19,487 bases of DNA. It comes from a virus. Its lineage: Duplodnaviria; Heunggongvirae; Uroviricota; Caudoviricetes. Shown piece after piece: positions 3,774 to 19,487 of the stretch. The translations under genes were made by a program, and so were the position numbers. The number at the start of each line of letters is the position of its first letter. Position 1 is the first letter of the stretch. The stretch lies in the IMG/VR virus record IMGVR_UViG_651053023_000006; one strand, 5' to 3'. The notes under the pieces are model-generated. The model did not search any database. It was not told the DNA's origin and saw only the letters and a program-made list of their open reading frames with translations.

Positions 3774-3774
3774 T

Positions 3775-4358: not shown

Positions 4359-4359
4359 G

Positions 4360-4455: not shown

Positions 4456-4758
4456 ATGACATTAAAAGAGTTTATTAAATCATTGAGGGTTGGTGATGCT
4501 AAGAAATTCGCGGCCAGACTTGGTGTATCGCCATCTTACTTATCGCAAATGGCGTCTGGACGAGCAGCTATATCTCCAACCCGCGCCCTTATGATCGAAT
4601 CTGCGACGGAAGGCCAAGTAAGTAGGGCGGAGCTACGACCCCATGATTGGGAGCTTATTTGGCCTGAGTATGCGAGCGGCATTCGTTTGGGGCAAACACA
4701 TGTAGTTCATGCTGAAGGTGATTGTAGTGCATGCTTATCTGATGGAGTTGATTCATGA
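4456..4758 (+). CDS. Cro/YdaS-like HTH regulator
   Basis: 100-aa ORF, ATG at 4456, with an HTH segment (FAARLGVSPSYLSQMASGRAAISPTRAL). Divergent from the repressor-like gene. Its stop overlaps the next start as ATGA at 4755-4758. Confidence 0.7.
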   Translation: MTLKEFIKSLRVGDAKKFAARLGVSPSYLSQMASGRAAISPTRALMIESATEGQVSRAELRPHDWELIWPEYASGIRLGQTHVVHAEGDCSACLSDGVDS

Positions 4759-5179
4759 AAATCAAGCATGAACACATCCGCATGGCGATGAATGCCTGGG
4801 CGCGTCCTGATGGCGAAAAAGTTCCAGCAGCTGAAATAACCCGGGCTTATTTTGAGCTTGGTATGACGTTCCCAGAGCTATATGACGACAGGCATCCGGA
4901 AGCCCTGGCTCGCAATACTCAGAAAATTTTCCGCTGGGTGGAGAAAGACACCCCTGATGCGGTTAAAAAATTCAGGCGCTGTTACCGGCGATCGAAAAGG
5001 CAATGCCACCTCTGCTGGTGGCCCGAATGCGCAGCCACAGTTCAGCCTATTTTCGGGAGCTGGTGGAGATGCGGGAACGACTGGTGAGAGACGCTGATGA
5101 TTTTGTCGCAGTGGCGATCGCTGGTTTCAATCAGATGAATCGTGGTGGTCCGGCGGGAAATGCCGTGGTGATGCACTAA
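4755..5179 (+). pseudogene. cII/YdaT-like regulator gene interrupted by a frameshift at an A6 run (4965-4970)
   Basis: Frame 1 from ATG 4755 stops at 5087. The frame shifted by -1 after the A6 run reads cleanly to TAA at 5177-5179 (...IQALLPAIEKAMPPLLVARMRSHSSAYFRELVEMRERLVRDADDFVAVAIAGFNQMNRGGPAGNAVVMH). A single extra A would give one ORF of about 141 aa. Confidence 0.5.
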
Positions 5180-5202
5180 AAGCACGGTGTTCGGAGTTTT
5201 TT

Positions 5203-6150
5203 ATGAGCAGCAAGCTTCATGGTCTTGTCTGGGAAGGGTGTGCCTTCACCGGCATGATCTTATCCAGGGTGGCAGTTATGGCTCGCCTTGCAGATTACAG
5301 CAATGACGAAGGTGTGTCATGGCCTGCAGTGGAGACCATTCGTCGTCAGATTGGGGCAAAGAGTGAATCAACGGTTAAAGCTGCGATAGCAGAACTGGAA
5401 AAGAACGGCTGGCTGACGAAGGAGGAACGTAAGGTCGGTGGGCGTAATGAAAGCAATATCTACCGTCTTAATGTGGAAAAACTCGAAGCAGCAGCAGCGG
5501 CAGCGCGTGAGGCATATAAACCGAAAAGAAAAATTAGCCAGGCAAAAAATGACCCGTCAAATATTGACCCCTCAACGGTTGACCCGTCAAATTTTGATGG
5601 ATCAACCGTTGATAAAAAACAGCCGGTTAGGGGGGCGATGGTTGGCCCCGATCCGTCAGTATTAAAACCTGATCCGTCAGATAAAAGATCTTTTCGTCCG
5701 GACGCTTCGCAACCGGACCCGCAGACGGCTGAACAGGATTTTTTAACCCGACACCCTGACGCGGTTGTGTTCAGTGCGAAAAAACGCCAGTGGGGCAGCC
5801 AGGAGGATTTAGCGTGTGCGCAGTGGATCTGGGGACGAATCGTGAGTCTTTACGAGCAGGCTGCCAGCGATGATGGCGAAATCATGCGACCGAAAGAACC
5901 CAACTGGACTGCATGGGCCAATGATGTGCGCACAATGCGGATGCTGGATGGCAGAACTCACAGACAAATTTGCGAAATGTTTGGTCGGGTACAGCGGGAT
6001 CCATTCTGGGTAAAAAACGTCATGAGCCCGTCAAAGCTTCGCGAAAAATGGGATGAGCTGGTTATTCGTCTGGGGCGTTCGCCTGTACAGCGTTGCGTGA
6101 ATCACATTTCTGAACCGGACACCGAAATTCCGCCGGGATTCAGGGGGTAA
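5203..6150 (+). CDS. Replication initiator, lambda O-like, with iteron-encoded linker
   Basis: 315-aa ORF with GGAG RBS. N-terminal winged-helix-like segment. The central peptide repeats (DPSNIDPSTVDPSNFDGSTVD...PDPSVLKPDPSD) are encoded by DNA iterons. It is followed by a DnaC-like loader gene. Confidence 0.7.
   Translation: MSSKLHGLVWEGCAFTGMILSRVAVMARLADYSNDEGVSWPAVETIRRQIGAKSESTVKAAIAELEKNGWLTKEERKVGGRNESNIYRLNVEKLEAAAAAAREAYKPKRKISQAKNDPSNIDPSTVDPSNFDGSTVDKKQPVRGAMVGPDPSVLKPDPSDKRSFRPDASQPDPQTAEQDFLTRHPDAVVFSAKKRQWGSQEDLACAQWIWGRIVSLYEQAASDDGEIMRPKEPNWTAWANDVRTMRMLDGRTHRQICEMFGRVQRDPFWVKNVMSPSKLREKWDELVIRLGRSPVQRCVNHISEPDTEIPPGFRG
5548..5690. repeat. Iteron array inside the O-like gene (candidate ori)
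   Basis: Repeated TGACCCGTCAA-type units (ATGACCCGTCAAAT, TTGACCCCTCAAC, TTGACCCGTCAAAT, GGATCAACCGTTGAT, CGATCCGTCAGTA, TGATCCGTCAGAT), each with partial dyad symmetry, followed by an A/T-richer stretch. Confidence 0.5.
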
Positions 6151-6156
6151 CGAAGC

Positions 6157-6903
6157 ATGAAAAATATTGCGACAGGCGGTGTTCTTGAACGCATCCGTAA
6201 GCTGGCTCCGCAGCATGTAACCGCGCCATACCGAACAGTGGACGAGTGGCGCGAGTGGCAACTTGCAGAAGGCCAGAAGCGTTGCGAGGAGATCAACCGC
6301 CAGAATCGTCAGTTGCGGGTGGAAAAAATTCTGAATCGCTCCGGCATCCAGCCGTTGCACCGCAAGTGCTCGTTTGCGAATTACCAGGTGCAGAATGACG
6401 GCCAGCGATACGCGTTGAGCCAGGCGAAATCCATCGCCGATGAACTGATGACCGGATGCACAAATTTCGCATTCAGCGGAAAACCTGGTACCGGGAAAAA
6501 CCACTTAGCGGCGGCTATCGGGAATCGCCTGCTGAAAGATGGCCAGACAGTGATTGTGGTTACCGTGGCTGATGTCATGAGTGCTCTACACGCCAGCTAT
6601 GACGACGGGCAATCAGGCGAAAAATTTTTGCGGGAACTGTGCGAAGTGGATCTGCTGGTTCTTGATGAAATTGGTATTCAGCGCGAGACGAAAAACGAGC
6701 AGGTGGTACTGCACCAGATTGTTGATCGCCGGACAGCGTCGATGCGCAGCGTGGGGATGCTGACAAACCTGAACTATGAGGCCATGAAAACATTGCTCGG
6801 CGAGCGGATTATGGATCGCATGACCATGAACGGCGGGCGCTGGGTGAATTTTAACTGGGAGAGCTGGCGCCCGAATGTTGGTCAGCCAGGTATTGAGAAG
6901 TAA
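6157..6903 (+). CDS. DnaC-like helicase loader (phage P / YdaV-like AAA+ ATPase)
   Basis: 248 aa. Walker [14 protein letters not shown] and Walker [19 protein letters not shown]. Immediately downstream of the O-like gene. Confidence 0.85.
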
Positions 6904-6925
6904 TTTTTACCGGGAGGAAATTTTA

Positions 6926-7696
6926 ATGGAGACCGTTTTTGACGCACTGAAAGCGATGGGAAAAGCCACGTCGGTAGAGCTGGCTGCGCGACTTGATATC
7001 AGTCGTGAAGAAGTACTGAACGAGCTGTGGGAACTGAAAAAGGCTGGCTTCGTTGATAAAAGCGTATACACCTGGCGTGTGGCTGGCGAAGGTGAATCAG
7101 GGGTAGCCGAAGAGCAGCCAGCACAATCTGAAGTACAGGATGTGCTAACCAGGGAGGTCGAACGAAAAGTTACCGCTGACATGATGATTGAGTTTATCGG
7201 TCAGGAGGGAGCTAAAACGTGTGAGGAACTGGCGGGTAAGTTCGGTGTCAGCACTCGCAAGGTTGCTTCCACGCTGGCGGTAGTAACCGCAACGGGGCGG
7301 CTGGCACGCGTAAACCAGAACGGTAAATTTCGCTACTGCATACCGGGCGATAATTTACCAGCAGAGCCGAAAGCTGCATTGGTAGCGGAAACTGATGGTA
7401 AAGCCTTTCCTCAGCCAGCAAGTGTTGCGTTACCAGTACAGGAAGCTGCAACACAGGAAGATATTAAAACAGAAACTGTGGCGGACATTGTGCAGTCGCT
7501 GCCATCGTTCACTGAAACACGAGCTGATGGCCTGATTTTACCATCGCTGCATATGGCAAACCGCGAACTGCGCCGGGCGAAAAGTCATGCCCAGAAGTGG
7601 GAGCGAGTTTGCGCCGCGCTGCGGGAGCTGAACAAGCACCGGGATATTGTCCGACAGATTGTCGATTCCTCCAGTCGTATTGTGCCGGAAAAGTGA
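6926..7696 (+). CDS. Hypothetical phage protein with two winged-helix-like segments
   Basis: Track ORF trimmed to ATG 6926, which has a GGGAGGA RBS. Two similar segments ([30 protein letters not shown] and [30 protein letters not shown]). Confidence 0.55.
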
Positions 7697-7712
7697 TTCC
7701 TGGGGAGGGCTT

Positions 7713-8168
7713 ATGGCAAAAGTATTTACACAGGAAGAGCGAGAAAAAATTAAAGGGCAGGTTGTTGAGCTGGTACGCCAGAGCGGGCGCGAGACGTTAC
7801 GGCAACTGGAAGCGAAAACTGGTGCGACAAGATATCTGATGAGTGTTATCGCCAGAGAGCTGGTTGCCAGTGGCGATGTATATAACTCTGGCTACGGGTT
7901 ATTCCCGTCTGAACAGGCTCGTAAGGACTGGCAAAACGCCCGCAAAAAACTCTCAAGGGCAAATCTGAAGAAACCATCTGTGGTTGATCCGGACCTTATC
8001 TGGTCATTACCAGACGGAGAAATGCGTCGCTACGATAGGCGCCTGAATATAATCTGTCGCGAGTGCCGGAAGAGCGAAGCTATGCAGCGTGTACTGGCAT
8101 TTTACCAGAATGGTTTTCGAGAGACATTCGGTGAACAGGTTGTGCATGAGGGAAATCATGGCGCTTAG
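7713..8168 (+). CDS. Hypothetical phage protein (N-terminal HTH-like segment)
   Basis: Track ORF trimmed to ATG 7713, which has a GGGGAGGG RBS. 151 aa. No catalytic motif recognised. Confidence 0.55.
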   Translation: MAKVFTQEEREKIKGQVVELVRQSGRETLRQLEAKTGATRYLMSVIARELVASGDVYNSGYGLFPSEQARKDWQNARKKLSRANLKKPSVVDPDLIWSLPDGEMRRYDRRLNIICRECRKSEAMQRVLAFYQNGFRETFGEQVVHEGNHGA

Positions 8169-8278
8169 GCAATTGTGTAGACGCGTTGACGGTCGAAAGC
8201 ATAGGAGGGTTGATTGATCGTTCTAGTTATGCTGTCAGAGCGAAAGCGCAGGAACTGGGTATCAATAGGATGTTAAGA

Positions 8279-8287
8279 GGGGGGGGG
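8279..8287. repeat. G9 homopolymer tract separating two ORF fragments
   Basis: Nine consecutive G read directly in the sequence. The upstream fragment ends ...INRMLRGGGL and stops at TAA 8291-8293. The downstream frame encodes YNQSKKHPQSDIELVRKLHQCGVPRRDIAVKREMSLGMINQYVYFDRRAHEV and stops at 8445-8447. Confidence 0.9.
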
Positions 8288-8595
8288 TTATAACCAATCA
8301 AAAAAACATCCGCAAAGCGATATTGAGCTAGTGCGGAAGCTTCATCAGTGTGGAGTTCCCCGCCGTGATATCGCTGTAAAACGCGAAATGTCCTTGGGCA
8401 TGATTAATCAGTACGTTTATTTCGACAGGAGAGCGCATGAAGTTTGACATCTAGACAACTGGGGGAGCGCTGAAAACGTTCTTAATTGATGTTGGATTCG
8501 CTTTACATACTGAACTGTTTGGCTGAAAGACACGGTAGTATCACCAATCAAGGTGCTTTTGATAAACGCTTGTGTGTTTGTTTTTTAATCCATTG

Positions 8596-8624
8596 TTGAC
8601 AACTAGGTTAGTTTTCCATATCAT
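8596..8624 (+). promoter_or_regulatory. Candidate sigma70 promoter for the ParA-like gene
   Basis: TTGACA (8596-8601), 17-nt spacer, TATCAT (8619-8624), about 30 nt upstream of ATG 8655. Confidence 0.5.
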
Positions 8625-8654
8625 CAATAAAAGTGTAAAACTAATGGTGGCGAT

Positions 8655-9701
8655 ATGACTAGTGAATCAAATGTTAATGCTCTGATAGAGCGTCAATTCG
8701 AAGTTGCTGACGGTAATGTAAGAAGTCTTAATTTGCCGAAATATGATAAATATACAGTATGTAATTTACGGGGAGGCATTGGTAAGACATCTTTAACTTT
8801 TAATCTGTCATATTTGGCGGATAACGCATTAATCGTGGATACGTGCCCGCAAGGAAATTTATCATATTTTTTTGACAATAATTATGCATCTTCGTCTAGC
8901 ACAACTGCAAATGACCTCTTAATGCCTTATTTTGTTCCAGGGCTTGGATTTGCAACGCGTGCTGCAAAGCTAGTATCATCAACTAATGCTTGGTTTGCGG
9001 GCAAGAATAACTATTTTATTCAATCTGATAGTCAACTTTATCTTCTACCTACGCAAATGGCGAATGCTCTGGCTCAAGCCAGAACAATTTCTGGGGCTAC
9101 TCAGCAGGTTGTTATTGATACAATTCTTTTTTCTCTGAAGAAAGAAATAGCCAGAGAAATGGTTGAAACTGGTACTACAAAAGCGTTAATTGATACATCA
9201 CCTTTTTTCTCTGGAGCGACGCATTTATCTTGGCATGCAACAGATGCTTTAATAGTTCCAGTGAGGACAGATCAGCAATCGATTAATTCATTAAGATTAC
9301 TTATTGATACTCTGACTAAACCAACATCAGAATTTAGAAAGATAATGCCGTCTGATGGCCATACACCAAAAATTCAGATGGTGGTTATTACCCATTGCGG
9401 ATGGTCAACAGTGGCAGGAGCAAGGAATAAACCAAATCAACAGACAAAAATGTACATCGAAGCTGTAAGAGAGGTAATTCGACAAAATATTAGTAATTTT
9501 ACAACAGATGATCCTAATAATCACATTGTGATTCTTGATGATTTTCTGGGTAGTGGCAGAATGTCAAGTGCTAAGTCTAAACCATTAGAGTTGTTAAATC
9601 CAGGAGATGCAATGACTGTGAATAGAGTTAGGACATCCGTGAATTTATCTGTTAACAAAATAAAAAATGAATTAAAGTTCATTCACAACTCCATATGGTA
9701 A
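8655..9701 (+). CDS. ParA/MinD-superfamily P-loop ATPase with atypical deviant Walker A (Arg replaces the signature Lys)
   Basis: 348 aa. Motifs: YTVCNLRGGIGKTSLTFNLSYL (deviant Walker A, R for K), LIVDTCPQGNLS (compare ParA LLIDLDPQGN), ALIDTSPFFSG ... DALIVPVRTDQQSINSL (Walker B region). About 30-aa N-terminal and about 60-aa C-terminal extensions. Region is visibly AT-rich. Confidence 0.8.
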   Translation: MTSESNVNALIERQFEVADGNVRSLNLPKYDKYTVCNLRGGIGKTSLTFNLSYLADNALIVDTCPQGNLSYFFDNNYASSSSTTANDLLMPYFVPGLGFATRAAKLVSSTNAWFAGKNNYFIQSDSQLYLLPTQMANALAQARTISGATQQVVIDTILFSLKKEIAREMVETGTTKALIDTSPFFSGATHLSWHATDALIVPVRTDQQSINSLRLLIDTLTKPTSEFRKIMPSDGHTPKIQMVVITHCGWSTVAGARNKPNQQTKMYIEAVREVIRQNISNFTTDDPNNHIVILDDFLGSGRMSSAKSKPLELLNPGDAMTVNRVRTSVNLSVNKIKNELKFIHNSIW

Positions 9702-9858
9702 ATGACATTTTATTTGAATAATCTGGATTGATAATTATTGTTACATTAATTGTTATTAATTCTAAATAATCCTATCGTTCTTCAGGATGAGATAATTTAT
9801 ATTTATTTGTGTTGTGATTTTTTGAATTTATTTAGGTTTATGAACTGTTTTAGATGAA

Positions 9859-9978
9859 ATGAATCATGAATACGAAATTGTTGCGGTACTGATAACGAGG
9901 AAAGACCTCTGCGAGGTACGAATCCGAACCGGCCAGACGGAGGTCGCTGTCTTCACAGCTTACGAACCTGAGGAGTAA
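9859..9978 (+). pseudogene. hok/gef-family type I toxin remnant, 5'-truncated
   Basis: 39-aa frame MNHEYEIVAVLITRKDLCEVRIRTGQTEVAVFTAYEPEE. The C-terminal 28 residues match the conserved Hok/Gef/RelF tail (LTRKxLCEx[RH]xRxGxxEVAxFxAYE). The N-terminal transmembrane helix is missing and no hydrophobic stretch is encoded upstream in any frame. GC-rich hairpins and a terminator follow, as in hok mRNA 3' regions. Confidence 0.6.
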
Positions 9979-10046
9979 GAGACCAGGCGAGGGAGAAATC
10001 CCTCGCCACCTCTGATGTGTCAGGCATCCTCAACGCACCCGCACTT

Positions 10047-10069
10047 AACCCGCTTCGGCGGGTTTTTTA
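10047..10069 (+). terminator. Rho-independent terminator (hok-remnant 3' end)
   Basis: ACCCGC-TTCG-GCGGGT hairpin (10048-10063) followed by T6. A strong GGCGAGGGA-GAAA-TCCCTCGCC hairpin lies upstream at 9986-10007. Confidence 0.7.
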
Positions 10070-10116
10070 TTGGTTGACAAAATTATGAATATGCACCAAT
10101 ATCTTGGTTGACAAAA
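10070..10116 (+). promoter_or_regulatory. Candidate promoter/operator with two direct TTGGTTGACAAAA repeats
   Basis: TTGGTTGACAAAA at 10070-10082 and 10104-10116. Each contains TTGACA. Located between the terminator and the start of the downstream two-gene operon. Confidence 0.4.
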
Positions 10117-10151
10117 GTCGTTTTTTGCACGGATTAGGCGGAGAAGTGTCT

Positions 10152-10745
10152 ATGCAGAACCATCCATTCCCTTGGGAGTTCTTTCCTGAGTTAACAGAGG
10201 AGCGTTTAACCATTATAGCTGAGGAGTTGCTCAGGATACAGGATATTACTCATGAGTTATTGTCATCGCCCTATGATGATAATTACACTCGTGGTGGTTG
10301 TACATTTGGGCGTCAGCGGCAGGCGTTGCTACAAATGTGCGTACGAAAGACATATGACTGGTTAAGACTACTTAATCCTGGCATGGATCTTACGTTTTCA
10401 ATTGGGAATGTCCCTATTCGTTTCTTTACTGATGACGCAGATAACCCCAAGAAACGCGGTTTTTTCAAAAGAAATGATGCTGATCGACTCTTTGAGTCAG
10501 AGGAGACTACTCCAACTATGCATCGCTTTGTGGTTGAAAAGCCTGAATTTGAAGGCGAGGGTGGTAGAGTCATTTTTAATGGCTATAACGTGTTTGGTGA
10601 GATCGTGTCAACTTGGACATATGGTGCGGACCGTGTTGTTATGCTGAACTCTGTCGATGATGTACCTCCAGCACCGGTACCTATCGAACTAGAACCTATC
10701 AGTGCGTCTAAGACTGAGAAGGAAAAGAAACAAAATAGCAAATAG
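10152..10745 (+). CDS. Hypothetical protein (197 aa), first gene of a two-gene operon
   Basis: Track ORF starts at TTG 10104; I prefer ATG 10152 with GGAG about 9 nt upstream. AT-rich codon usage. No family motif recognised. Stop TAG at 10743-10745 is 10 nt before the next start. Confidence 0.65.
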   Translation: MQNHPFPWEFFPELTEERLTIIAEELLRIQDITHELLSSPYDDNYTRGGCTFGRQRQALLQMCVRKTYDWLRLLNPGMDLTFSIGNVPIRFFTDDADNPKKRGFFKRNDADRLFESEETTPTMHRFVVEKPEFEGEGGRVIFNGYNVFGEIVSTWTYGADRVVMLNSVDDVPPAPVPIELEPISASKTEKEKKQNSK

Positions 10746-10755
10746 TGGGTGAAAT

Positions 10756-11877
10756 GTGTTTAACGGTACTAATTTAAGACTTGCTCGTCTGTATCACGAG
10801 CTATCTCTGGAGCAGGTTGCTGAGAAGGTTGAAAAAACACGCCAGTATGTACAGCGACTGGAGTCTGGTTCAGCTACTCCATCCCCAGAGCTTATAAATA
10901 AATTAGCCGAGGTTTTGCGCGTGAAGCCCGCCTTTTTCGAAGGGCAGGAACATTCTCCTGTTAATGAAGAGATTGTACATTTTCGTAAACGCGCCTCGAC
11001 AAGGATGTCAACGAAGCTATCAACACTCGCTAAGGCTGAGTTTTATCGTCGTTTTATTGATGTATTTGAAGATAACCTTAATTTGTCACCTGTTCGATTT
11101 CCTGAATTTCGTGTCCATACACAAGAAGATATCGAGCGAGCGGCAGAAAAATGTCGTATTGAGTGGGGCTTAGGCTTTGGCCCAATTGAAAATATGACTC
11201 GCCTTGCCGAGAAACTTGGGGCGTTTGTTACTTCATTTGACTCCGTTTCGGATGAAGTAGATGCACTGTCTGTTCCTCTACGAAGGCCTTTTATTGTTCG
11301 AAATACAGCTAAAAATTCACCTTGTAGGCAACGCTTTGATATTGCTCATGAGGTTGCCCATTTGATTCTTCATGAAGGAATTTCTACTGGGGATAGATTA
11401 ACTGAATCCCAGGCAAACCGTTTTGCCTCTGCTCTGTTGCTTCCCAGAACGTCGATGGCGAAATATTTTCCAAGACCTGTGGGGGGGAGGATAAATTGGC
11501 AGGGACTAAGCCAATTTAAGTTGACATGGAAAGTAAGTAAGGCTGCCATTGTTTACAGGGCTCATCAATTAGGACTTTTGACTGATGAGCAGTACAGAAC
11601 TGCATTTATGGGGTTGAAACGGAAAGGGGAAGCTATTGATGAAAAAGAAGATTATCTAATCCCTCATGAGCGTCCTGAGTTATTCCGTCGGGCTTTATCG
11701 TTTTTATTTGAAGAGTTAGGATACGACCCACAGCGTATAGCTGATGAAATGGATATAGAAGTGGACATTTTTTATGAGTTAGTAGGAGATGATCTTCCTG
11801 CGGTTCATGAACTGCCAGGAAGTGGTGATGTTGTTTCACTACAATCTTACCGAACTCTTAGAGGCAAAATTCACTAG
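10756..11877 (+). CDS. XRE-family HTH fused to ImmA/IrrE-type zinc metallopeptidase (COG2856-like)
   Basis: GTG start at 10756. N-terminal HTH (LRLARLYHELSLEQVAEKVEKTRQYVQRLESG...ELINKLAEVL). Central HEXXH motif (FDIAHEVAHLILHE) in the arrangement typical of ImmA/IrrE peptidases. 373 aa. Confidence 0.75.
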   Translation: MFNGTNLRLARLYHELSLEQVAEKVEKTRQYVQRLESGSATPSPELINKLAEVLRVKPAFFEGQEHSPVNEEIVHFRKRASTRMSTKLSTLAKAEFYRRFIDVFEDNLNLSPVRFPEFRVHTQEDIERAAEKCRIEWGLGFGPIENMTRLAEKLGAFVTSFDSVSDEVDALSVPLRRPFIVRNTAKNSPCRQRFDIAHEVAHLILHEGISTGDRLTESQANRFASALLLPRTSMAKYFPRPVGGRINWQGLSQFKLTWKVSKAAIVYRAHQLGLLTDEQYRTAFMGLKRKGEAIDEKEDYLIPHERPELFRRALSFLFEELGYDPQRIADEMDIEVDIFYELVGDDLPAVHELPGSGDVVSLQSYRTLRGKIH

Positions 11878-11881
11878 GCAT

Positions 11882-11904
11882 AACCCGCTTCGGCGGGTTT
11901 TTTG
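11882..11904 (+). terminator. Rho-independent terminator, identical hairpin to 10047-10069
   Basis: ACCCGC-TTCG-GCGGGT followed by T6, starting 5 nt after the stop at 11875-11877. Confidence 0.7.
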
Positions 11905-11978
11905 TTTTACGTATTCTGGTTTACAATCTACAGGCTAGCCTGAACAACTGGCACCTGCTGCGCCAGCAGAGAAAACCG

Positions 11979-12251
11979 ATGGCGCACAATACCAAACATC
12001 ACAATTCTGATACCGACCTTGCCAGCTGGCACGGGCGGCGTTCTCATACATTCAAATATGACTGGTACCAGCATGCCCCATGCACTGAAGAACAGGCCGA
12101 ATGGCTGATTCAGAACTACCGCAGGCGTGGGTACGACTTTCAGAAAGACCTCAGCCCTGACTTCCGACACTGGATAATTTCTGTCAGGCTCCCTTATTCC
12201 GAACGCCCACCGCGTCCGTCCCGCACATTCCAGCAACGCATCTGGAGGTAA
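11979..12251 (+). CDS. Hypothetical small protein (Rem-like by position)
   Basis: 90-aa ORF, ATG at 11979. Its stop TAA (12249-12251) sits next to the GGAGG RBS and GTG start of the downstream DUF968 gene. Gene order resembles rem-ydfU-Q in Qin-type prophages. Confidence 0.45.
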   Translation: MAHNTKHHNSDTDLASWHGRRSHTFKYDWYQHAPCTEEQAEWLIQNYRRRGYDFQKDLSPDFRHWIISVRLPYSERPPRPSRTFQQRIWR

Positions 12252-12252
12252 C

Positions 12253-13308
12253 GTGCGGGTATTACTTCGACCTGTTCTGGTGCCGGAACTTGGGGTGGTT
12301 ATCGTTAAGCCAGGTCGTGAATCCATGCAGGTATTCCATAACGGCAGAGTGCTGGTTGAACCGGAGCCAAAAAGCATGCGCGGTCTGCCGTCCGGGGTCG
12401 TTCCTGCCGTTCGCCAGCCGCTGGCGGAAGACAAATCTCTGCTGCCATTTTTCAGCGATGAGCGGGTGATTCGTGCTGCCGGCGGCGCTGGTGCACTGTC
12501 TGACTGGCTCCTGCGTCATGTTAAATCCTGCCAGTGGCCACACGGCGATTATCATCACAGCGAAACCGTTATTCACCGTTATGGTACCGGCGCAATGGTG
12601 TTGTGCTGGCACTGCGACAACCAGCTGCGTGACCAGACATCCGAATCACTCGAGCAACTTGCTCATCAAAACCTGTCAGCATGGATGATTGACGTCATAC
12701 ACCATGCAATGAATGGCACGCAGGAGCGGGAATTATCGCTGGCTGAATTATCTTGGTGGGCAACCATAAATAACGTAGCGGACGCACTACCGGAGACGGT
12801 ATTACGTCGTTCGCTGGGATTGCGCGCGGAAAAAATTCGCTCAGTATACCGCGAGAGCGACATCGTGCCGGGAGAGCAGACCGCCACCAGCATACTGAAG
12901 CAGCGCACAAAAAATCTTGCGCCGCTGCCTCACGCCCACCAGCAAAACCCGCCACAGGAAAAGACAGTGGTCAGCATTGCCGTTGATCCGGAGTCACCGG
13001 CTCAGTATCTCCAGCGCCAGAAACCACAACGGGAAGAGATGCCTGTATACACGCGCTGGGTAAAAACGCAGAAATGCATGACGTGCGGTAATCAGGCAGA
13101 TGATCCGCATCACATCATTGGTCATGGACTGGGAGGGATGGGAACAAAGGCTGACGATTTGTTTGTTATTCCATTGTGCCGTAAATGTCATAACGAACTG
13201 CACACCGGGGTAAAAGATTTTGAAGAAAAACACGGCAGCCAGCTGTTGTTGCTGATTCGTTTTTTAATGCACGCGAGAAATTCGGGTGTCCTGAAGTGGA
13301 AAGCATAA
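12253..13308 (+). CDS. DUF968 (YdfU-like) prophage protein with C-terminal HNH/zinc-finger-like motif
   Basis: 351 aa, GTG start with GGAGG upstream. C-terminal CMTCGN...HHIIGHG...CRKCHNELH cysteine/histidine cluster. Stop TAA is adjacent to the rusA ATG. Confidence 0.65.
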   Translation: MRVLLRPVLVPELGVVIVKPGRESMQVFHNGRVLVEPEPKSMRGLPSGVVPAVRQPLAEDKSLLPFFSDERVIRAAGGAGALSDWLLRHVKSCQWPHGDYHHSETVIHRYGTGAMVLCWHCDNQLRDQTSESLEQLAHQNLSAWMIDVIHHAMNGTQERELSLAELSWWATINNVADALPETVLRRSLGLRAEKIRSVYRESDIVPGEQTATSILKQRTKNLAPLPHAHQQNPPQEKTVVSIAVDPESPAQYLQRQKPQREEMPVYTRWVKTQKCMTCGNQADDPHHIIGHGLGGMGTKADDLFVIPLCRKCHNELHTGVKDFEEKHGSQLLLLIRFLMHARNSGVLKWKA

Positions 13309-13674
13309 ATGACCGAACGCATAGAATTTGTTTTGCCTTACCCGCCAACGGTGAACACCTACTGGCGACGTCGTGGCAGCACATATTTTGTATCAAAAGC
13401 CGGTGAGCGTTATCGCCGTGATGTGGCGCTAATTGTTCGCCAGCAGCGGCTGAAATTAAACCTGTCCGGACGGCTGGCGATAAAGGTGATTGCAGAGCCA
13501 CCGGATAAACGTCGTCGTGACCTGGACAATATCCTGAAAGCACCACTGGATGCGCTGACGCATGCCGGACTACTCATAGACGACGAGCAGCTTGATGAAA
13601 TCAATATTGTGCGCGGTCAGCTCGTTCCTGGTGGGCGGCTGGGGATAAAAATCACAGAATTGGAGTGCGCATGA
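13309..13674 (+). CDS. rusA: RusA-family Holliday junction resolvase
   Basis: 121 aa. PYPPTVNTYW and RRRDLDN motifs match the RusA pattern (PWPPSNNRYY, RRRDLDN). Stop overlaps the Q-like start as ATGA. Confidence 0.85.
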   Translation: MTERIEFVLPYPPTVNTYWRRRGSTYFVSKAGERYRRDVALIVRQQRLKLNLSGRLAIKVIAEPPDKRRRDLDNILKAPLDALTHAGLLIDDEQLDEINIVRGQLVPGGRLGIKITELECA

Positions 13675-14360
13675 ATAACCAGTATTTACAGTTTGTGCGC
13701 GAGCAGCTCATTATCGCCACCGCTGATTTGAGTGGGGCAACAAAAGGTCAGCTTGAAGCCTGGCAGGAGAATGCCATGTTTGATACAGGGCGTTACAGGC
13801 GTAAAAAAATCCGGTACCGCGATGAAGTGACTGGAAAAATGATAACGCGGGATAATCCACCAATCCCGGGAAAACAATCACTGGCGAAAGGCTCATCAAT
13901 TGCCCTGGTCAGCCCGGTTGAGTTTTCGACATCATCATGGCGGCGGGCTGTGCTGTCTCTTGAAGAGCATCATAAAGCCTGGTTGTTGTGGTGTTACGGC
14001 GGAAACATTTGCTGGGAGCATCAGATCGCGATAACACAGTGGGCGTGGAACGAATTTAATACTCAATCCGGTACCAGAAAAATTGCAGGGAAAACGCAGG
14101 AACGCCTGAAAAAATTAATCTGGCTGGCGGCGCAGGCAGTAAAAGCAGAACTTTTTGGTGGGGAAGGTTATGAATACCAGGAGCTGGCATTACTGGCGGG
14201 AGTGACAACTAAAAACTGGTCCAAAACATTTACTCGTCACTGGGTTGCAATGAAACACATTTTTTACCGACTGGATAGTGGGGCTTTATTGTTTGTAATG
14301 AGAACGCGTTCAAAACAAAAGGCGGCATTTTCAAAGCAAAGTGTTGCAAAAGTAGATTGA
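13671..14360 (+). CDS. Q-like late antiterminator (candidate)
   Basis: 229-aa ORF (ATG 13671, GGAG RBS) in the canonical position after rusA and before a promoter, tRNA and terminator. The family call rests mainly on position and size. Confidence 0.5.
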   Translation: MNNQYLQFVREQLIIATADLSGATKGQLEAWQENAMFDTGRYRRKKIRYRDEVTGKMITRDNPPIPGKQSLAKGSSIALVSPVEFSTSSWRRAVLSLEEHHKAWLLWCYGGNICWEHQIAITQWAWNEFNTQSGTRKIAGKTQERLKKLIWLAAQAVKAELFGGEGYEYQELALLAGVTTKNWSKTFTRHWVAMKHIFYRLDSGALLFVMRTRSKQKAAFSKQSVAKVD

Positions 14361-14532
14361 AAGGCATATATTTTATGCAAATCTGATATTTTGCCGATTT
14401 TGTACGTGATGGCAAAAGCAAACAAAACCCGCCCAAATGTGGTTTTTTTTGTGCCACTTATCTCGGATAGACATGGTGAATGCGCTGGTGGAGGAAGTAA
14501 GGGTGATTTTTAACCAGGTGATTTTTGAATGC

Positions 14533-14561
14533 TTGCAACATTGATTTTGTAACGTTATTAT
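14533..14561 (+). promoter_or_regulatory. Strong sigma70-like promoter directly upstream of the tRNA
   Basis: TTGCAA (14533-14538), 17-nt spacer, TATTAT (14556-14561). The tRNA 5' end is at 14571. Confidence 0.5.
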
Positions 14562-14570
14562 CCTGCGCCC

Positions 14571-14646
14571 GGCCCTTTAGCTCAGTGGTGAGAGCGAGCG
14601 ACTCATAATCGCTTGGTCGTTGGTTCAAACCCAACAGGGGCCACCA
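14571..14646 (+). tRNA. tRNA with CAU anticodon, Ile2 (lysidine) type by similarity to ileX; tRNA-Met not formally excluded
   Basis: 76 nt including CCA. Acceptor stem GGCCCTT/AGGGGCC. Anticodon stem AGCGA/TCGCT with loop CTCATAA (U33, CAT, A37). T arm GTTGG-TTCAAAC-CCAAC. Closely resembles E. coli tRNA-Ile2 as I remember it. Confidence 0.9.
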
Positions 14647-14657
14647 TATACAACAAA

Positions 14658-14693
14658 GGGTTAGCTAATAAATCAGCTAACCCTTTTTCTTTT
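14658..14693 (+). terminator. Rho-independent terminator downstream of the tRNA
   Basis: 9-bp stem GGGTTAGCT/AGCTAACCC with an 8-nt loop, followed by TTTTTCTTTT. Confidence 0.6.
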
Positions 14694-14704
14694 GCCTTTG
14701 AATT

Positions 14705-14727
14705 GGGTCAGGTAATGGGTCAGGTAA
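14705..14727. repeat. Tandem direct repeat GGGTCAGGTAA x2
   Basis: GGGTCAGGTAATGGGTCAGGTAAG read directly, at the junction between the tRNA terminator and the island. Confidence 0.6.
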
Positions 14728-14745
14728 GCTTTTTCTCCATCTGAC

Positions 14746-15591
14746 TCAGATGGCTGATAGTTGCCCCGGATAATGCTTCGCAATGATGTCATTTAGCCGA
14801 TCAACCAGTTCCGGTTTTCTGAACGTGATGTGCGCGGAGCCCTTCTTAAAGTATCTGATGCTGAACATCTCATCTTCATAGCTCTCTTTACCCTGAACAG
14901 ACTGAATGTGATCATCCAGACGAATAGTGATGTTTTCCCGGTTGTCGGGGATCGGTTTGCCGCTGAACAGATGCAGCATTCTTTCCAGGTCGGCAAGTCG
15001 ATCGGCCTGTTGCCCGGTGATAAGATGAAACCCCCACCGGTCCCACCTCACCAGGTTGTTGACGATAATTTTACTGCTAAATTTGCAGGGGCAATTGGTT
15101 TTGTAATTCCAGCTCAGCCCTCTGAAGACGTTGATCACCCCTCGCTCAAACACCTCATCCTTATTCTGGTGCAGTTGTTCAAATGTGCTCAGAATGTTCG
15201 CTTCACTGATTTCCGGAAAATTATCGTACTCCAGTGACCGGTACCATGTATCACGGGCCTGCGCATCCATTAATGACAGCATCCCGGAACGTTGCATCAG
15301 ATCACGCCAGAGTTCGCGATCAAGATTGTGTGTGATGGCTTTCATTGCCGTTTCAGGTTTCTCCATGAGCCAGCAGCCACAGCGAAAATCCTGTTTCATC
15401 GCCCAGCCCAGTGCGGTTTTACCGCCAATACTTTCTGTCATTGCTGAGATTTCAGCCAGTTGCCGGATAAGTGTGTCGATTTGCAGCAGTGAACTCTTTC
15501 GTACAGCCAGAATGTGGCGGATACTGGTTGAGCAGATAACGTCCGTATGCCCGTTGACAACTTCCGGACGGGAGGCTGTGATATCAGACAT
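14746..15591 (-). CDS. Conserved hypothetical protein, distal gene of a CP4-type island
   Basis: 281-aa ORF, ATG at 15589-15591 with AGGA upstream. Context: downstream of a cbtA/cbeA-type module. Confidence 0.6.
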   Translation of the reverse strand: MSDITASRPEVVNGHTDVICSTSIRHILAVRKSSLLQIDTLIRQLAEISAMTESIGGKTALGWAMKQDFRCGCWLMEKPETAMKAITHNLDRELWRDLMQRSGMLSLMDAQARDTWYRSLEYDNFPEISEANILSTFEQLHQNKDEVFERGVINVFRGLSWNYKTNCPCKFSSKIIVNNLVRWDRWGFHLITGQQADRLADLERMLHLFSGKPIPDNRENITIRLDDHIQSVQGKESYEDEMFSIRYFKKGSAHITFRKPELVDRLNDIIAKHYPGQLSAI

Positions 15592-15675
15592 AATCGATAT
15601 TCCTTTTTGCAGATAAATGAAAACGCCAGCCCTGTTCAGGCTGGCGTCAGTGGAATGAAGTCTGGTGAGTAAGAC

Positions 15676-15873
15676 TCACCGGTTCTGTTGCAGAAGCTGC
15701 AGTTGGCGCAGGGTATGGATATCTTCCCTGGCCTGTTCAATGCAGGGCAGCAGTGCTGCCGAATCCATTTTATCCTCATCGTTGTCGAAGATAATTCCGG
15801 ATTCGCAGTCGATATTGTTCTGTAGCCACGCAATCAGAATATCCAGCGCCGTTTCTGTGGTTAATGATTCCAT
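15676..15873 (-). CDS. Small conserved hypothetical protein (about 65 aa)
   Basis: Track ORF 15676-16110 overlaps the upstream gene out of frame. Only the part from ATG 15871-15873 (MESLTTETALDILIAWLQNN...) is non-overlapping. Confidence 0.45.
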   Translation of the reverse strand: MESLTTETALDILIAWLQNNIDCESGIIFDNDEDKMDSAALLPCIEQAREDIHTLRQLQLLQQNR

Positions 15874-15892
15874 ACTGTGTCTTTTGTCCAGG

Positions 15893-16381
15893 TTACCAGT
15901 TGAAGGTGGGTAAACCCGGCAGGCATTCAGCGCTGGCATCCAGGTGAATGAGACTGACGCCATAACGCCGGATGAGTGTGACAACCAGACGACGGAATGT
16001 TTTTGACAGGCCCAGACGTTTAAGTTGCAGAACCGGGTATGACCACGCATCGGTACGTAACAGATATCCGCTACCGGTAAAATGAATCCATTCTGATTCG
16101 CCGAAGTCACTGGTCTGGTGTGACAGCGAGTACAACCAGGCGTTGTCTGTTTCCGTGATATGTGCGGTGCTGCAGCGTATACCGCTCAGGGCAGCGGAGG
16201 GTGGCATGCTGTCAGTTGCGGTCCGGTCAGATTCATCAACAACACGAAGGGAGTAGCCATTGTCGCAGGCCACGTTAATCAGTTCAGCAAGATTAACACC
16301 ATCGACGTCAACGACAATGCGCCCCATGTTCAGTGCCTGCACGTTAATGCTGTCGGCTTCCAGCGTCAGGGCCAGTTTCAT
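15893..16381 (-). CDS. YeeW-like hypothetical protein
   Basis: 162 aa. Its ATG (16379-16381) overlaps the stop of the upstream toxin gene as ATGA. Confidence 0.55.
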   Translation of the reverse strand: MKLALTLEADSINVQALNMGRIVVDVDGVNLAELINVACDNGYSLRVVDESDRTATDSMPPSAALSGIRCSTAHITETDNAWLYSLSHQTSDFGESEWIHFTGSGYLLRTDAWSYPVLQLKRLGLSKTFRRLVVTLIRRYGVSLIHLDASAECLPGLPTFNW

Positions 16382-16755
16382 TGTTTCGCCCCCGGATGTT
16401 TACCCAAGATAATGTTATTTACCGTTCTGTAATTGTCGCGGGCCATCAGGCCGGTTGCCCGGCGGGTCCGGAGGATATCAATACTGTTTATTAACTGAGA
16501 GCGGGTACAGGTGCTGAACCCCGGCTGGTCGGTTCGTACCAGTGCGTATTTTTCCACGAGAAAGTTCACCGCATCGCACAGTGAAATGCCTGCCTCAATA
16601 TGCTGCTCAATCACACGTTCATCGGCAAACGGTGTGTCATTCAGCGTGAGGCCGTAATGCTGGTCCAGCAGTCGGGTGAGCAGTATCTGCCAGATGGTGA
16701 CGGGAGACGGGCAGCGCGATGCCTCCCGTACATGCGTGTCGGGTAATGTTTTCAT
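16378..16755 (-). CDS. cbtA: CbtA-family type IV toxin (YeeV/YkfI/YpjF family)
   Basis: Track ORF trimmed to ATG 16753-16755 (125 aa, MKTLPDTHVREASRCPSPVTIWQILLTRLLDQHYGLTLNDTPFADERVIEQHIEAGISL...). Lies downstream of a CbeA-like antitoxin. Paralog assignment is uncertain. Confidence 0.8.
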   Translation of the reverse strand: MKTLPDTHVREASRCPSPVTIWQILLTRLLDQHYGLTLNDTPFADERVIEQHIEAGISLCDAVNFLVEKYALVRTDQPGFSTCTRSQLINSIDILRTRRATGLMARDNYRTVNNIILGKHPGAKQ

Positions 16756-16844
16756 ACTGAAGATTTTCCTGATATGCAGAGATGAAAAATGGAAAAGTGG
16801 CGTGGTGAAAACACCAGGCCGGAGCAGAAGGTTATTCTGGAGAG

Positions 16845-17213
16845 TTACTTTTTCGTTTCGGGCGTCGGATAAACAGCCATATAAACGTAGCCACAACTGC
16901 CGAGGGTGTCGGCTTCGCAGGTCAGCCCTTTTGCATACAGTGTCACGGTATGCTGATGGCGGGGGCTGAGTTCACCGCTGGTGAGCATGAGCTCCAGTTG
17001 TTTCATCAGCAGCGGAAAGGCCTGGTCCAGGTGGTACGAATCCGCGTCGCTGAACCGGCCTCTGATACCGGCGCGGTCTGCAAGGTAATGCAACCGGTTA
17101 CCCTCCTGCACCAGACGTGCACCGAAACAGGGCGTCACGGAGCAGGGTAGCCCCCACCAGGGGCGGTCGTTGTTATCGTCGGGATGCGTTGTCCCGGGGA
17201 GTGTGTCTGACAC
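16845..17213 (-). CDS. cbeA: CbeA-family antitoxin (YeeU/YfjZ/YafW family)
   Basis: 122 aa, GTG start at 17211-17213 with GAGGA 8 nt upstream. MSDTLPGTT...PWWGLPC...RLHYLADRAGIRG... matches the family as I remember it. Confidence 0.8.
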   Translation of the reverse strand: MSDTLPGTTHPDDNNDRPWWGLPCSVTPCFGARLVQEGNRLHYLADRAGIRGRFSDADSYHLDQAFPLLMKQLELMLTSGELSPRHQHTVTLYAKGLTCEADTLGSCGYVYMAVYPTPETKK

Positions 17214-17292
17214 GATAAAATCCTCACAGAAAATTGGTTAAGAATGGTCCGGTGGTGGCGATAATTCTGCTCTTCTGAATGCCTTTCCAGAC

Positions 17293-17514
17293 TCAGTTCA
17301 GGGTGACGCTCATCAGCCGGACATACGGACCAAAACTGTCCTTACGGCGTTCGGCAAACACGGCAAGAACGCCGGGAATATCCTGCACTTCACGACCGGT
17401 ATACGCCTCAGCACCGCCGTGCCAGCGGTATTTACCGGTACAGAACGGAAAAAGACGGGATGCAGGATGCTGACGGTGAATACGCATGGCTTCACCACAG
17501 GTGATGATTTTCAT
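17293..17514 (-). CDS. yeeT: YeeT-family small protein (DUF987)
   Basis: 73 aa (MKIITCGEAMRIHRQHPASRLFPFCTGKYRWHGGAEAYTGREVQDIPGVLAVFAERRKDSFGPYVRLMSVTLN), nearly identical in pattern to YeeT as I remember it. Confidence 0.8.
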   Translation of the reverse strand: MKIITCGEAMRIHRQHPASRLFPFCTGKYRWHGGAEAYTGREVQDIPGVLAVFAERRKDSFGPYVRLMSVTLN

Positions 17515-17600
17515 GAGAATAGTCCTCCTGAATGTGAAAGTAAGAAACAGCTGAGAAAGAGAAACTGAAGTGATATGAAGGTGATTGTGACGGTGACGGG

Positions 17601-18077
17601 TTAAAGCAGACCGTGTTCCGCAAAGGAGAAAACCTGGCTGCCACCGATTATCAGATGGTCCGGCACCCGGATGTCAACCAGGGCCAGTGCCTGTACCAGA
17701 CGTTCCGTAATAAGGCGGTCAGCCTTACTGGGTGTGACTTCACCGGACGGATGATTGTGTGCCAGTACCACGGCAGCGGCATTGTGGTGCAGGGCGCGTT
17801 TAATCACCTCCCGGGGATGGACTTCCGTGCGGTTGATGGTGCCTGTGAAGAGGGTTTCACCGGCAATCAGCTGATTCTGGTTGTTCAGATACAGCACCCG
17901 GAACTCTTCCCGCTCCAGTCCTGCCATGTTCAGAATCAGCCATTCCCGTGCCGCATGCGTGGAGGTGAAGGCCACACCGGGTTCATGAAGATGGCGGTCC
18001 AGGGTTTTCAGGGCCCGCTGAATGAGGCTGCGCTCACCGGGCGTCATCTCTCCTGGCAGAAAGGAAAGCTGTTGCAT
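17601..18077 (-). CDS. RadC-like JAB/MPN domain protein (YeeS/YfjY/YkfG family)
   Basis: Track ORF starts at GTG 18182; I prefer ATG 18075-18077 (158 aa). JAMM-like HNHPSGEVTPSKAD motif. Confidence 0.75.
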   Translation of the reverse strand: MQQLSFLPGEMTPGERSLIQRALKTLDRHLHEPGVAFTSTHAAREWLILNMAGLEREEFRVLYLNNQNQLIAGETLFTGTINRTEVHPREVIKRALHHNAAAVVLAHNHPSGEVTPSKADRLITERLVQALALVDIRVPDHLIIGGSQVFSFAEHGLL

Positions 18078-18091
18078 TGTTCCGGCCCCTT

Positions 18092-18577
18092 TCAGTCGAT
18101 GATGCGCATAATGGCGCTGCATTCCGGATGCTGCAGGGCGTAGTCCCGCAGACGGTAATAATGAACCGTCATGGCATAACACTCCGTACGACAGGCGTGA
18201 TGGCTGTATGTCATCAGACAGGCTGCAATGCCGGCGGCTTCCGGGCTCATTTCAGCGCGGTTACCGTTCATGGCATTGAACAGTACCCATGTTTCGTCAT
18301 CATCGTCATCCGGTTCGGGTGCCATAAATGCCCCTCCGTTATTCAGTGTGTACAGATTCCAGATACCACCGCAGTAGTCTTCACACAGACGGTCCATCCA
18401 GCCGAAGATACGGGGCTCCAGGGTCACCCACTGTGGGATGAGGCCAAAATGCTGCGGCCAGAAGCTGATACGTTGTTCATCAGGGACGAGGCTGGCAACC
18501 AGCTGAGGCTGGTTATTCCCTGATGCAGTGGTTACGGAAACAGAAGGTGTGGTTGAATTATGCGAAACGGTTGTCAT
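18092..18577 (-). CDS. Antirestriction protein (KlcA/ArdB-like, YfjX family)
   Basis: 161 aa, ATG 18575-18577 with AGGA RBS. Acidic patch (EPDDDDDE). Position between DUF932 and RadC-like genes is typical of CP4-type islands. Confidence 0.7.
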   Translation of the reverse strand: MTTVSHNSTTPSVSVTTASGNNQPQLVASLVPDEQRISFWPQHFGLIPQWVTLEPRIFGWMDRLCEDYCGGIWNLYTLNNGGAFMAPEPDDDDDETWVLFNAMNGNRAEMSPEAAGIAACLMTYSHHACRTECYAMTVHYYRLRDYALQHPECSAIMRIID

Positions 18578-18668
18578 GAGATTATTCCTTATAAAAAGTA
18601 AATGAATGGAAGAATGCCTGGGGGAAGGGACAGACGTGAGTCAGGGCTGCACTTTCAGGGAAACAGCA

Positions 18669-19487
18669 TCAGCGCATGCTCTCCAGCAGCGTTTCTGCCA
18701 TCACCCACAATGCGCGATTGAGCTTAATGTCCGTGTCGATGCTGTGAATGGCACGGGTGTGGATACGTTTTCCTTTAGCGCTGCGACCGGAAATCCCGCC
18801 TTTCAGCATATTTTCCTGGATGGTCTGATAAGCACTCCACAGGTCCTTACCGTAATCCTCCCGGCGTCGTGGCGTCAGAATGTCGGCGGTGGTGACGGGC
18901 TGATGTTCGTCACCATAACGGTAATTCAGTGCCGCCTGTGCCAGCGCCTGGCGTGCCGGTGGCGGTAAGACCAGAGACTGCATGGCATCACGCTTTTCCT
19001 CAATCCGGTCAAACACGCCCACCACCTCGTAAGCCCCTTCAATGACTCTGTCCACCACATTTCCCCGGTGTGGAACACTCACTTCCCCCAGAGACTGACC
19101 ACAGACGCAGCCGTTCTGGCAGACGAACCTGAAGTAACCCGGCAGCATCTGGTAGCTGGAGGTACCGTCATGGGAGTTCAGCAGGATGATTTCAGGGACA
19201 TGTTGTCCGTTTATCTCCCCGTCACGGCGCAGACGCAGCATGTGTCTGGTGTATCCCCGGCGGCCCGGGTCGCGCACGCGGGTCTGGCAGGCGAAGAATG
19301 GCTGAAAACCTTCCCGCTGCAGGTTTTCCAGTACGGTGATGGTGGGAATGTACGCATAGCGTTCACTACGGGAGGTATGCCGGTCTTCCCCAAAAATACT
19401 GGGTACATAGTGCATCAGTTCTTCGTGTGTCAGCGGACGGTCACGGCGTATCTGGTTTACATGACCAAAACGACTTGCTAATCGCAT
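18669..19487 (-). CDS. DUF932 family protein (YfjQ/YafZ-like)
   Basis: 272-aa ORF. Its ATG is the last three bases of the window (19485-19487), so the CDS appears complete but its upstream region is not visible. Confidence 0.7.
   Translation of the reverse strand: MRLASRFGHVNQIRRDRPLTHEELMHYVPSIFGEDRHTSRSERYAYIPTITVLENLQREGFQPFFACQTRVRDPGRRGYTRHMLRLRRDGEINGQHVPEIILLNSHDGTSSYQMLPGYFRFVCQNGCVCGQSLGEVSVPHRGNVVDRVIEGAYEVVGVFDRIEEKRDAMQSLVLPPPARQALAQAALNYRYGDEHQPVTTADILTPRRREDYGKDLWSAYQTIQENMLKGGISGRSAKGKRIHTRAIHSIDTDIKLNRALWVMAETLLESMR

Follow-up and report, generated by a model that had tools for sequence, protein, structure and literature searches.

The window, by which we mean the whole 19,487-nt stretch of IMG/VR record IMGVR_UViG_651053023_000006 analyzed here, opens with the left end of a lambdoid prophage, marked by an integrase gene on the minus strand (1-1119) whose product carries the Pfam domains Arm-DNA-bind_1 and Phage_integrase. 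Exactly the same integrase protein adjoins potC/potD in all four contexts shown (23 contigs were read), and in Escherichia coli ETEC4090 an integrase occupies the same spot beside potC; window positions 1-14646 are 99.3% identical to the potC-adjacent lambdoid prophage of that strain. The final phage protein gene is that of the antiterminator Q (13671-14360, plus strand; PF06323, E = 2.7e-92), preceded by genes for RusA and a DUF968 protein. In ETEC4090, the stretch downstream of Q begins with a cluster of tRNA-Ile, tRNA-Lys, tRNA-Thr, and tRNA-Gly, past which lie genes for holin, endolysin, and terminase; the prophage of ETEC1738 has the same layout. The identical Q protein is encoded on 10 other contigs, with lysis genes 3' of Q in every one of them (the tRNA cluster between Q and the lysis genes was looked at in three related prophages only). 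Neither lysis nor morphogenesis genes were found within the window among the open reading frames or by Pfam, in agreement with the original prediction, which had described the late genes as missing. A promoter-like site overlies the Q stop codon (14344-14372, plus strand; TTGCAA-17-TATATT, 9/12 matches to the consensus) and may be the phage late promoter. A weak hairpin with a U-run at about 14418-14452 was considered as an established tR' terminator and discarded, as it folds no better than shuffled sequences (z = -1.12).

The prophage part differs from its relatives in several details. Between the exonuclease and DUF1391 genes (1419-3284), about 2.3 kb is missing with respect to ETEC4090; the window lacks the ydfD, dicB, and DicF RNA region of that prophage, and DicF was undetected in it. 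The closest draft relative, L038, which was retrieved by exact look-up of the prophage integrase and is 99.87% identical over window positions 1-11118, carries at the exonuclease-DUF1391 position a 594-aa exonuclease-DUF1391 fusion gene. The YdaT-family gene (4755-5087) has a 1-base deletion at 4964 with respect to L038 and is 110 codons long, versus 141 in relatives, being either a pseudogene or the product of a sequencing error. Twelve substitutions relative to L038 are clustered within 350 nt of the replication-organiser gene (5277-5627), the remaining 11 kb showing one other substitution and a single 1-nt gap, and this cluster looks like a small recombination patch. Exact look-up of the window-specific 621-aa and 315-aa proteins returned no record, which for the 315-aa protein is attributable to the patch. 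A RelE/ParE-RelB toxin-antitoxin pair appears to lie upstream of the repressor region (3495-4020), according to ORF positions and the annotation of ETEC4090 and L038, and a ParA-like ATPase gene is located at 8655-9701.

Downstream of Q, the original prediction had read a strong promoter, a complete Ile2-type tRNA with CCA, and a terminator, and all three were recovered. The promoter (14533-14561, plus strand) is of the sigma-70 type (TTGCAA-17-TATTAT, 9/12 matches to the consensus), and its -10 hexamer ends 9 nt before the tRNA. It is phage derived, being the same in the aligned prophages of ETEC1738 and ETEC4090, and it resembles the promoter of chromosomal ileX (TTGCGA-17-TATAAT). ARAGORN detects a single tRNA in the window, 76 nt long with anticodon CAT (14571-14646, plus strand), and Rfam model RF00005 scores it at 71.4 bits (gathering score 29). 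The label Met given by ARAGORN stems from the CAU anticodon alone; near-identical copies are annotated as tRNA-Ile by NCBI. The comparison with host ileX gave 68 of 76 identical positions, so that the gene is not identical to this host core tRNA. The acceptor pairs C4-G69 and C5-G68, which are TilS determinants, are present. By its sequence the tRNA is thus of the Ile2 type, with a body like those of ileX and ileY and unlike Met tRNAs; the CAU anticodon of tRNA-Ile2 reads AUA once it is modified to lysidine. The intrinsic terminator (14655-14696, plus strand) consists of a hairpin with a 12-bp stem (14655-14686) followed by TTTTTCTTTT; its folding energy is -17.4 kcal/mol (z = -5.16), and none of 200 shuffled sequences folds equally well.

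The genes that follow are all on the minus strand, as had been stated, and belong to an island of the CP4 type. The first at the island end is a DUF4942 gene (14746-15591; Pfam E = 8e-69), followed by genes for a DUF957-like 65-aa protein (15636-15833), a DUF5983 protein (15893-16381), the toxin CbtA (16378-16755; PF06755, E = 4.6e-62), and the antitoxin CbeA/YeeU (16845-17213; PF06154, E = 2.8e-54), which forms a type IV toxin-antitoxin pair with CbtA. DUF987, RadC, antirestriction protein, and DUF932 genes occupy 17293-19487, and the island runs on beyond the end of the window. The order DUF4942, DUF5983, CbtA/CbeA, DUF987, RadC, antirestriction protein, DUF932 is that of a CP4-type module. 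The DUF4942, DUF5983, CbtA, CbeA, and antirestriction proteins were identified by Pfam in the window itself, and DUF987, RadC, and DUF932 were assigned through precomputed Pfam annotation of identical proteins in contigs L006-L013 (for DUF932, in L006, L002, and L004). Exact look-ups of the Q, DUF4942, and antirestriction proteins returned ordinary contexts only. Between the terminator and the first island gene, the motif GGGTCAGGTAA occurs twice in tandem (14705-14727, plus strand), versus 0.24 copies expected in the window. A 25-nt block holding GGGTCAGGTAA twice is present at both ends of the island of S115 and beside the integrase gene in EPSSH018 (both described below), suggesting that these repeats are candidate arm-type binding sites of the integrase.

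The exact DUF4942 protein adjoins ileX (on the mug side) or ileY (on the csiD side) in 8 other contexts, and 437 of 5426 complete E. coli genomes have a tRNA-Ile directly before the DUF4942 end of an island of this family at ileX/ileY. In the contexts examined, the DNA upstream of the island is always chromosomal, either mug (ileX) or the csiD side (ileY), and the combination of phage DNA upstream with island DNA downstream was found in none of the complete E. coli genomes. Including the window, the same island end is therefore found at the same tRNA position in three 5' contexts, namely mug-ileX, csiD-side ileY, and phage Q. The literature counts both ileX and ileY among the sites where islands and phages insert (PMC7545054, PMC5539235, PMC4313913).

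Comparison of the window with these two kinds of DNA revealed that the tRNA is a recombinant, made of a phage 5' half and an island 3' half. Positions 13472-14612 are 100% identical, with 0 mismatches, to the lambdoid prophage of ETEC1738, and positions 14598-19487 (4,890 nt) match with 0 mismatches the CP4-type island at chromosomal ileY of L006 (E. coli). Common to both matches, and thus to both parents, is only GCGACTCATAATCGC (14598-14612, plus strand) of the anticodon stem-loop, which constitutes the crossover interval. The part 14571-14597 is unambiguously phage, with phage-specific bases at tRNA positions 20, 26, and 27 (14590, 14596, and 14597); these are the only tRNA positions that differ from the ileY::island tRNA of L006, and upstream of the tRNA the window is unrelated to the ileY locus of that contig. 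The 3' half, TTGGTCGTTGGTTCAAACCCAACAGGGGCCACCA (14613-14646, plus strand), is supplied by the island and equals the L006 copy, as well as the S115 copy except at tRNA position 72. With respect to the phage parent, whose unrecombined tRNA reads GGCCCTTT...CGCCAGGTCGCTGG..., the window differs at tRNA positions 43, 44, 50, 60, 64, and 67 and is unrelated past the CCA. The two parental tRNAs share identity blocks of 19, 5, and 15 nt, and the island's own homology to the tRNA begins at 14600 (GACTCAT...), the boundary on the island side, CCTCAT joined to GACTCATAATCGC, being present in both S115 and EPSSH018. The crossover core, GCGA-CTCATAA-TCGC, is an inverted repeat around a 7-nt loop. The proposal that the tRNA is phage-borne is therefore correct for the promoter, the upstream DNA, and the 5' half (0 mismatches to ETEC1738) and incorrect for the 3' half, the terminator, and the downstream DNA, which are those of the island in L006.

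These data bear directly on the alternative offered with the original prediction, in which the tRNA would be a host gene serving as the target of the island. The window tRNA is indeed the integration target of the island. A reading in which it is the host's ileX or ileY in its normal place, with the island inserted into it and the prophage merely adjacent, is hardly credible, even though neither the island end nor the tRNA 3' half differs from those at ileX/ileY. Over 1.1 kb of upstream DNA, which takes in the promoter and the 5' half of the tRNA, the window is identical to a prophage; the upstream regions of both ileX and ileY are unrelated to the window; and the prophage integrase is of the potC type, far from ileX/ileY. 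The post-Q spacer plus tRNA is contained in 292 records of the phage collection, mostly Stx-converting and other lambdoid phages, and none of these 292 contains the window sequence 3' of the tRNA.

The missing late genes had been explained by a deletion or replacement, in which an intact phage tRNA would be followed by an unrelated island end brought in by illegitimate recombination. The absence of late genes from the window, their regular presence after the identical Q on the 10 other contigs, and the fact that this prophage already carries the ~2.3-kb deletion and a frameshift would all fit such an event, which we nevertheless regard as very unlikely. The tRNA is not an intact phage gene, as the six positions 43 to 67 listed above are of the island type; the junction sits exactly on the attachment core of the island and not at an arbitrary point; and with the island come the 3' half, terminator, and arm repeats that also accompany it at ileX/ileY. 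What the window holds is not a fully phage-sequence tRNA followed by other phage tRNAs and lysis genes, the six island-type substitutions of the 3' half being followed by island DNA.

The structure of an attachment junction of this island at its usual target can be read in S115, where a 38-kb island lies between ileX and nfeF/yqjH. At one end of it, a hybrid tRNA joins the 5' half of ileX to the island 3' half. The other end encodes a 438-aa integrase of the P4/CP4 type (Arm-DNA-bind_3, Phage_int_M, and Phage_integrase domains), past which comes the displaced native 3' half of ileX, beginning exactly at GACTCATAATCGC, and then the native terminator, of which the island terminator is the counterpart. 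The structures of the two ends imply that the island brings its own version of the tRNA from anticodon loop to 3' end, together with a look-alike terminator. At the integrase-distal junction, which is the one seen in the window, the target gene is likewise a hybrid whose 3' part comes from the element, and elsewhere this element is inserted into further copies of the target at an unchanged crossover point (437 genomes; L006-L013; S115). The S115 island also contains, amid IS fragments (L004 36738-38363), a chromosomal mcr-1.32 colistin-resistance gene and a PAP2 gene, as well as a cluster of methyltransferase, helicase, and GIY-YIG nuclease genes. In L007 and L011 (10946-11021), the hybrid tRNAs of ileY::island junctions end in ...CAGTGGTCACCA, which would leave the acceptor stem with a C-U mismatch and a G-U pair; these copies may therefore be damaged tRNAs.

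Two further explanations would produce a hybrid of the same sequence by other means. One is a RecA-dependent homologous recombination between the prophage tRNA and an island-occupied ileX or ileY, resulting in a large inversion or translocation with its breakpoint at the window tRNA. E. coli is known to undergo inversions mediated by prophages, and the window sequence is exactly what a crossover in the 15-nt identity block of the two tRNAs would yield. Efficient RecA recombination, however, requires roughly 20-30 bp, a length reached neither by the longest perfect match between the two tRNAs (19 nt) nor by the block used (15 nt). Moreover, the crossover would have to coincide by chance with the integrase core of ileX, ileY, and three other independent phage-tRNA junctions. 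These observations, and the arrangement in an O111:H8 genome given below, make this event improbable in our view. The other explanation is an assembly chimera, in which a prophage contig was joined to an ileX/ileY::island contig at the repeated tRNA. tRNA-Ile2 is indeed a multi-copy repeat, and the draft contig of the relative L038 ends at about window position 14565, just ahead of the tRNA. We give such an artifact very little credence, since the parents share at most 19 exact bases, and only 15 where the switch occurs, which is too short for k-mer or overlap assemblers, since the switch falls exactly within the biological crossover core, and since equivalent junctions are found in two complete genomes and one independent contig.

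The first of these junctions was found with a predicted reciprocal junction as query, in which the integrase end of S115 was followed by the 3' half of the phage tRNA and by the phage tRNA next to it. This query matched a single complete genome, EPSSH018, across the predicted join. Its junction consists of the integrase gene, the arm repeats, CCTCAT, then GACTCATAATCGC, then CAGGTCGCTGGTTCAAATCCAGCAAGGGCCACCA, that is, a 3' half of the phage type; there follow a tRNA-like sequence, tRNA-Arg, ISEc20, and genes for TerB, holin, lysozyme, Rz, and terminase, a late region that belongs to a lambdoid prophage at ompW. A prophage-borne target is thus seen once on the integrase side (EPSSH018) and in none of the 437 island-bearing complete genomes on the integrase-distal side. 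At the integrase-distal, DUF4942 end of the EPSSH018 island (L015 36779-46115), the island abuts an 8.9-kb gene for a TcdA/TcdB-type glycosyltransferase (LifA/Efa1-like). As no tRNA stands between this end and the glycosyltransferase gene, the junction must have been rearranged. The early region of this prophage has been replaced by IS1 and the glycosyltransferase gene.

An exact-pattern scan with the hybrid tRNA matched a further IMG/VR contig, L005. On its left side are the Q gene, a methylase gene, the promoter, and the 5' half of the tRNA, all from an O121-type prophage; on the right, the same 3' half as in the window is followed by a capsid-encoding, PICI-like satellite whose usual site is ileX. 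L005 is thus a second, independent hybrid with the same crossover interval. Because it combines O121-type prophage DNA with that of a satellite, it was rejected as proof that the window tRNA is a native phage allele. In the complete genome of an O111:H8 strain (7-58 72A), the satellite is fully nested, with both junctions in one prophage: the early genes of the prophage are followed by the hybrid tRNA, again with this crossover interval, the satellite of ~10 kb ending in its integrase gene, the displaced phage 3' half, two tRNA-Arg genes, and the late genes. The late genes of this prophage are displaced rather than deleted. Given that the two junctions lie ~10 kb apart in one prophage, this arrangement points to an insertion and not to an inversion. 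Taken together, insertion into a phage tRNA was seen in 1 of 5426 complete genomes for the CP4-type island and in one more for the second element, and this rarity indicates a secondary site. The exact hybrid-junction pattern was absent from species-representative genomes and metagenomes, and the reciprocal pattern from viral contigs and species-representative genomes. A homologue search with the integrase found cluster representatives, none of which could be linked to phage surroundings.

The CP4-type island and the PICI-like satellite were also compared with each other (L005 1714-1792; L042 14002-14080 and 22811-24238; L004 11093-12409). Both carry an identical 37-nt replacement tRNA 3' half, TTGGTCGTTGGTTCAAACCCAACAGGGGCCACCATAT, yet between their integrases there is hardly any relationship (21% identity over 147 aa, E = 0.006). 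Despite the common att core allele, their arm repeats differ, GGGTCAGGTAA in the CP4-type island and AGGATACC in the satellite.

From these observations, we consider it likely that the phage-borne tRNA-Ile2 gene acted as a secondary attB into which a CP4-type island integrated site-specifically. This reading is supported by the hybrid structure and its crossover interval, by the occurrence of this island at other attB sites, and by the reciprocal junction elsewhere. The usual target of the island is the anticodon loop in ileX and ileY, the chromosomal tRNA-Ile2 genes, and here the target would have been their phage-borne paralogue 3' of Q in a lambdoid prophage at potC. As the phage tRNA is paralogous to ileX down to the promoter, it offers the same core, and strand exchange would have taken place inside GACTCATAATCGC (14600-14612), presumably catalyzed by the island integrase. 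The product gene would have kept the phage promoter and the phage 5' half and gained the island 3' half and the island terminator, and for this reason the tRNA should stay functional. Consistent with this, the cloverleaf of the hybrid has 21 of 21 standard pairs (one of them G-U) and a 3' CCA end, and its Rfam score of 71.4 bits is close to those of the phage parent (72.5) and of the ileX/ileY hybrids (69.7-70.5); the hybrid transcription unit is probably complete and functional.

With a hybrid tRNA whose 3' half comes from a site-specifically integrated island, the island most likely splits the prophage and pushes the late genes away, so that in the genome from which the window derives these genes were probably displaced and not deleted. 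Deletion or replacement, as first proposed, is not the best reading, since the related insertions keep the phage 3' half, phage tRNAs, and lysis genes past the integrase end. A far junction should accordingly exist outside the window, where the island would end with a P4-like tyrosine integrase gene and a further copy of the arm repeats, next to the displaced 3' half of the phage tRNA; beyond this, the remaining phage tRNAs and then the genes for lysis and morphogenesis would be expected. Q and the late promoter would then be tens of kilobases from their target genes, with oppositely oriented island DNA in between. This orientation and the added length should block normal phage production unless the island excises first, and the prophage should thus be functionally crippled.

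The locus resembles several known systems and departs from each of them in some respect. Like the ileZ-argN-argO cluster of phage 933W and the tRNA-Ile-Lys-Thr-Gly clusters of the potC family, the tRNA has a post-Q position and its own promoter, and its 5' half and upstream DNA are identical to the prophage copies; unlike in these clusters, its 3' half is not that of a phage, and island DNA stands in place of the neighboring tRNAs and the lysis genes. With the CP4-type islands of ileX/ileY, which have a P4-like integrase, the window shares the gene module, the tRNA 3' half, the terminator, and the candidate arm repeats (L006 is 100% identical over 4.9 kb), but its target tRNA is in a prophage and not in the chromosome backbone. 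For tyrosine integrases that target tRNA genes, a sublocation in the anticodon loop, as well as an attP that includes a replacement sequence, was described by Williams (2002, NAR 30:866), as cited in PMC10111431. The window agrees with this scheme, with a crossover in a 7-nt loop flanked by a symmetrical stem and an attP extending from the tRNA loop to beyond the 3' end, and without mechanistic difference; the integrase gene of the island lies at the end with the displaced fragment and not beside the intact tRNA.

The nearest precedent that our limited literature search returned is that of helper-embedded PICIs, satellites integrated within late genes of a helper prophage (PMC10111431); the same paper already describes PICIs in tRNA-Ile2 genes, and the search found no report of an island or satellite attached at a prophage-borne tRNA. 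The island of the window is likewise nested site-specifically in a prophage, where it would part or interrupt late functions until excision, but its target is a tRNA gene and not a late protein gene, and this target is repaired by the replacement half. Neither satellite genes (primase, capsid/packaging, AlpA) nor a late protein-gene target was found in the window, the visible genes being those of a CP4-type island. Two other forms of nesting were observed in related phages. In the ETEC4090 prophage (L003 33533-40973), which among intact prophages is the closest relative of that in the window, the gene for the terminase large subunit is split by an element with its own integrase and with BRO-N, Icd-like, DUF4222, and DUF927 genes, which is the helper-embedded satellite configuration of PMC10111431. 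Several ~90-kb records of the phage collection (H142, LC567818.1) hold an Stx2a phage nested in a PPompW prophage with the same Q and a tRNA-Ile-Lys-Arg arrangement, another nesting form in this phage family.

In summary, this mechanism could have been foreseen from what is known of tRNA-targeted integration, the event is rare, and its practical value is modest. It accounts for an apparently truncated prophage without a deletion, and it means that tRNA genes carried by phages can serve chromosomal islands as attachment sites, placing one mobile element within another. As a broader and rather doubtful possibility, phage-borne tRNA-Ile2 genes might be recurrent secondary landing sites for ileX/ileY-targeting elements of at least two kinds, the CP4-type Ag43/CbtA island and the capsid-encoding PICI-like satellite, with integrases 21% identical. 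The selected consequence would be that Q and the late promoter are uncoupled from the genes for lysis and morphogenesis, that the prophage is disabled or held hostage, and that satellites gain a tRNA-mediated embedding in a potential helper. If this were general, calls of prophage completeness that rest on missing late genes may err where an island intervenes, draft assemblies breaking at a repeated tRNA would conceal such nesting, and phage tRNAs would put the phage that carries them at a disadvantage and would allow islands and satellites to silence prophages or couple to them.
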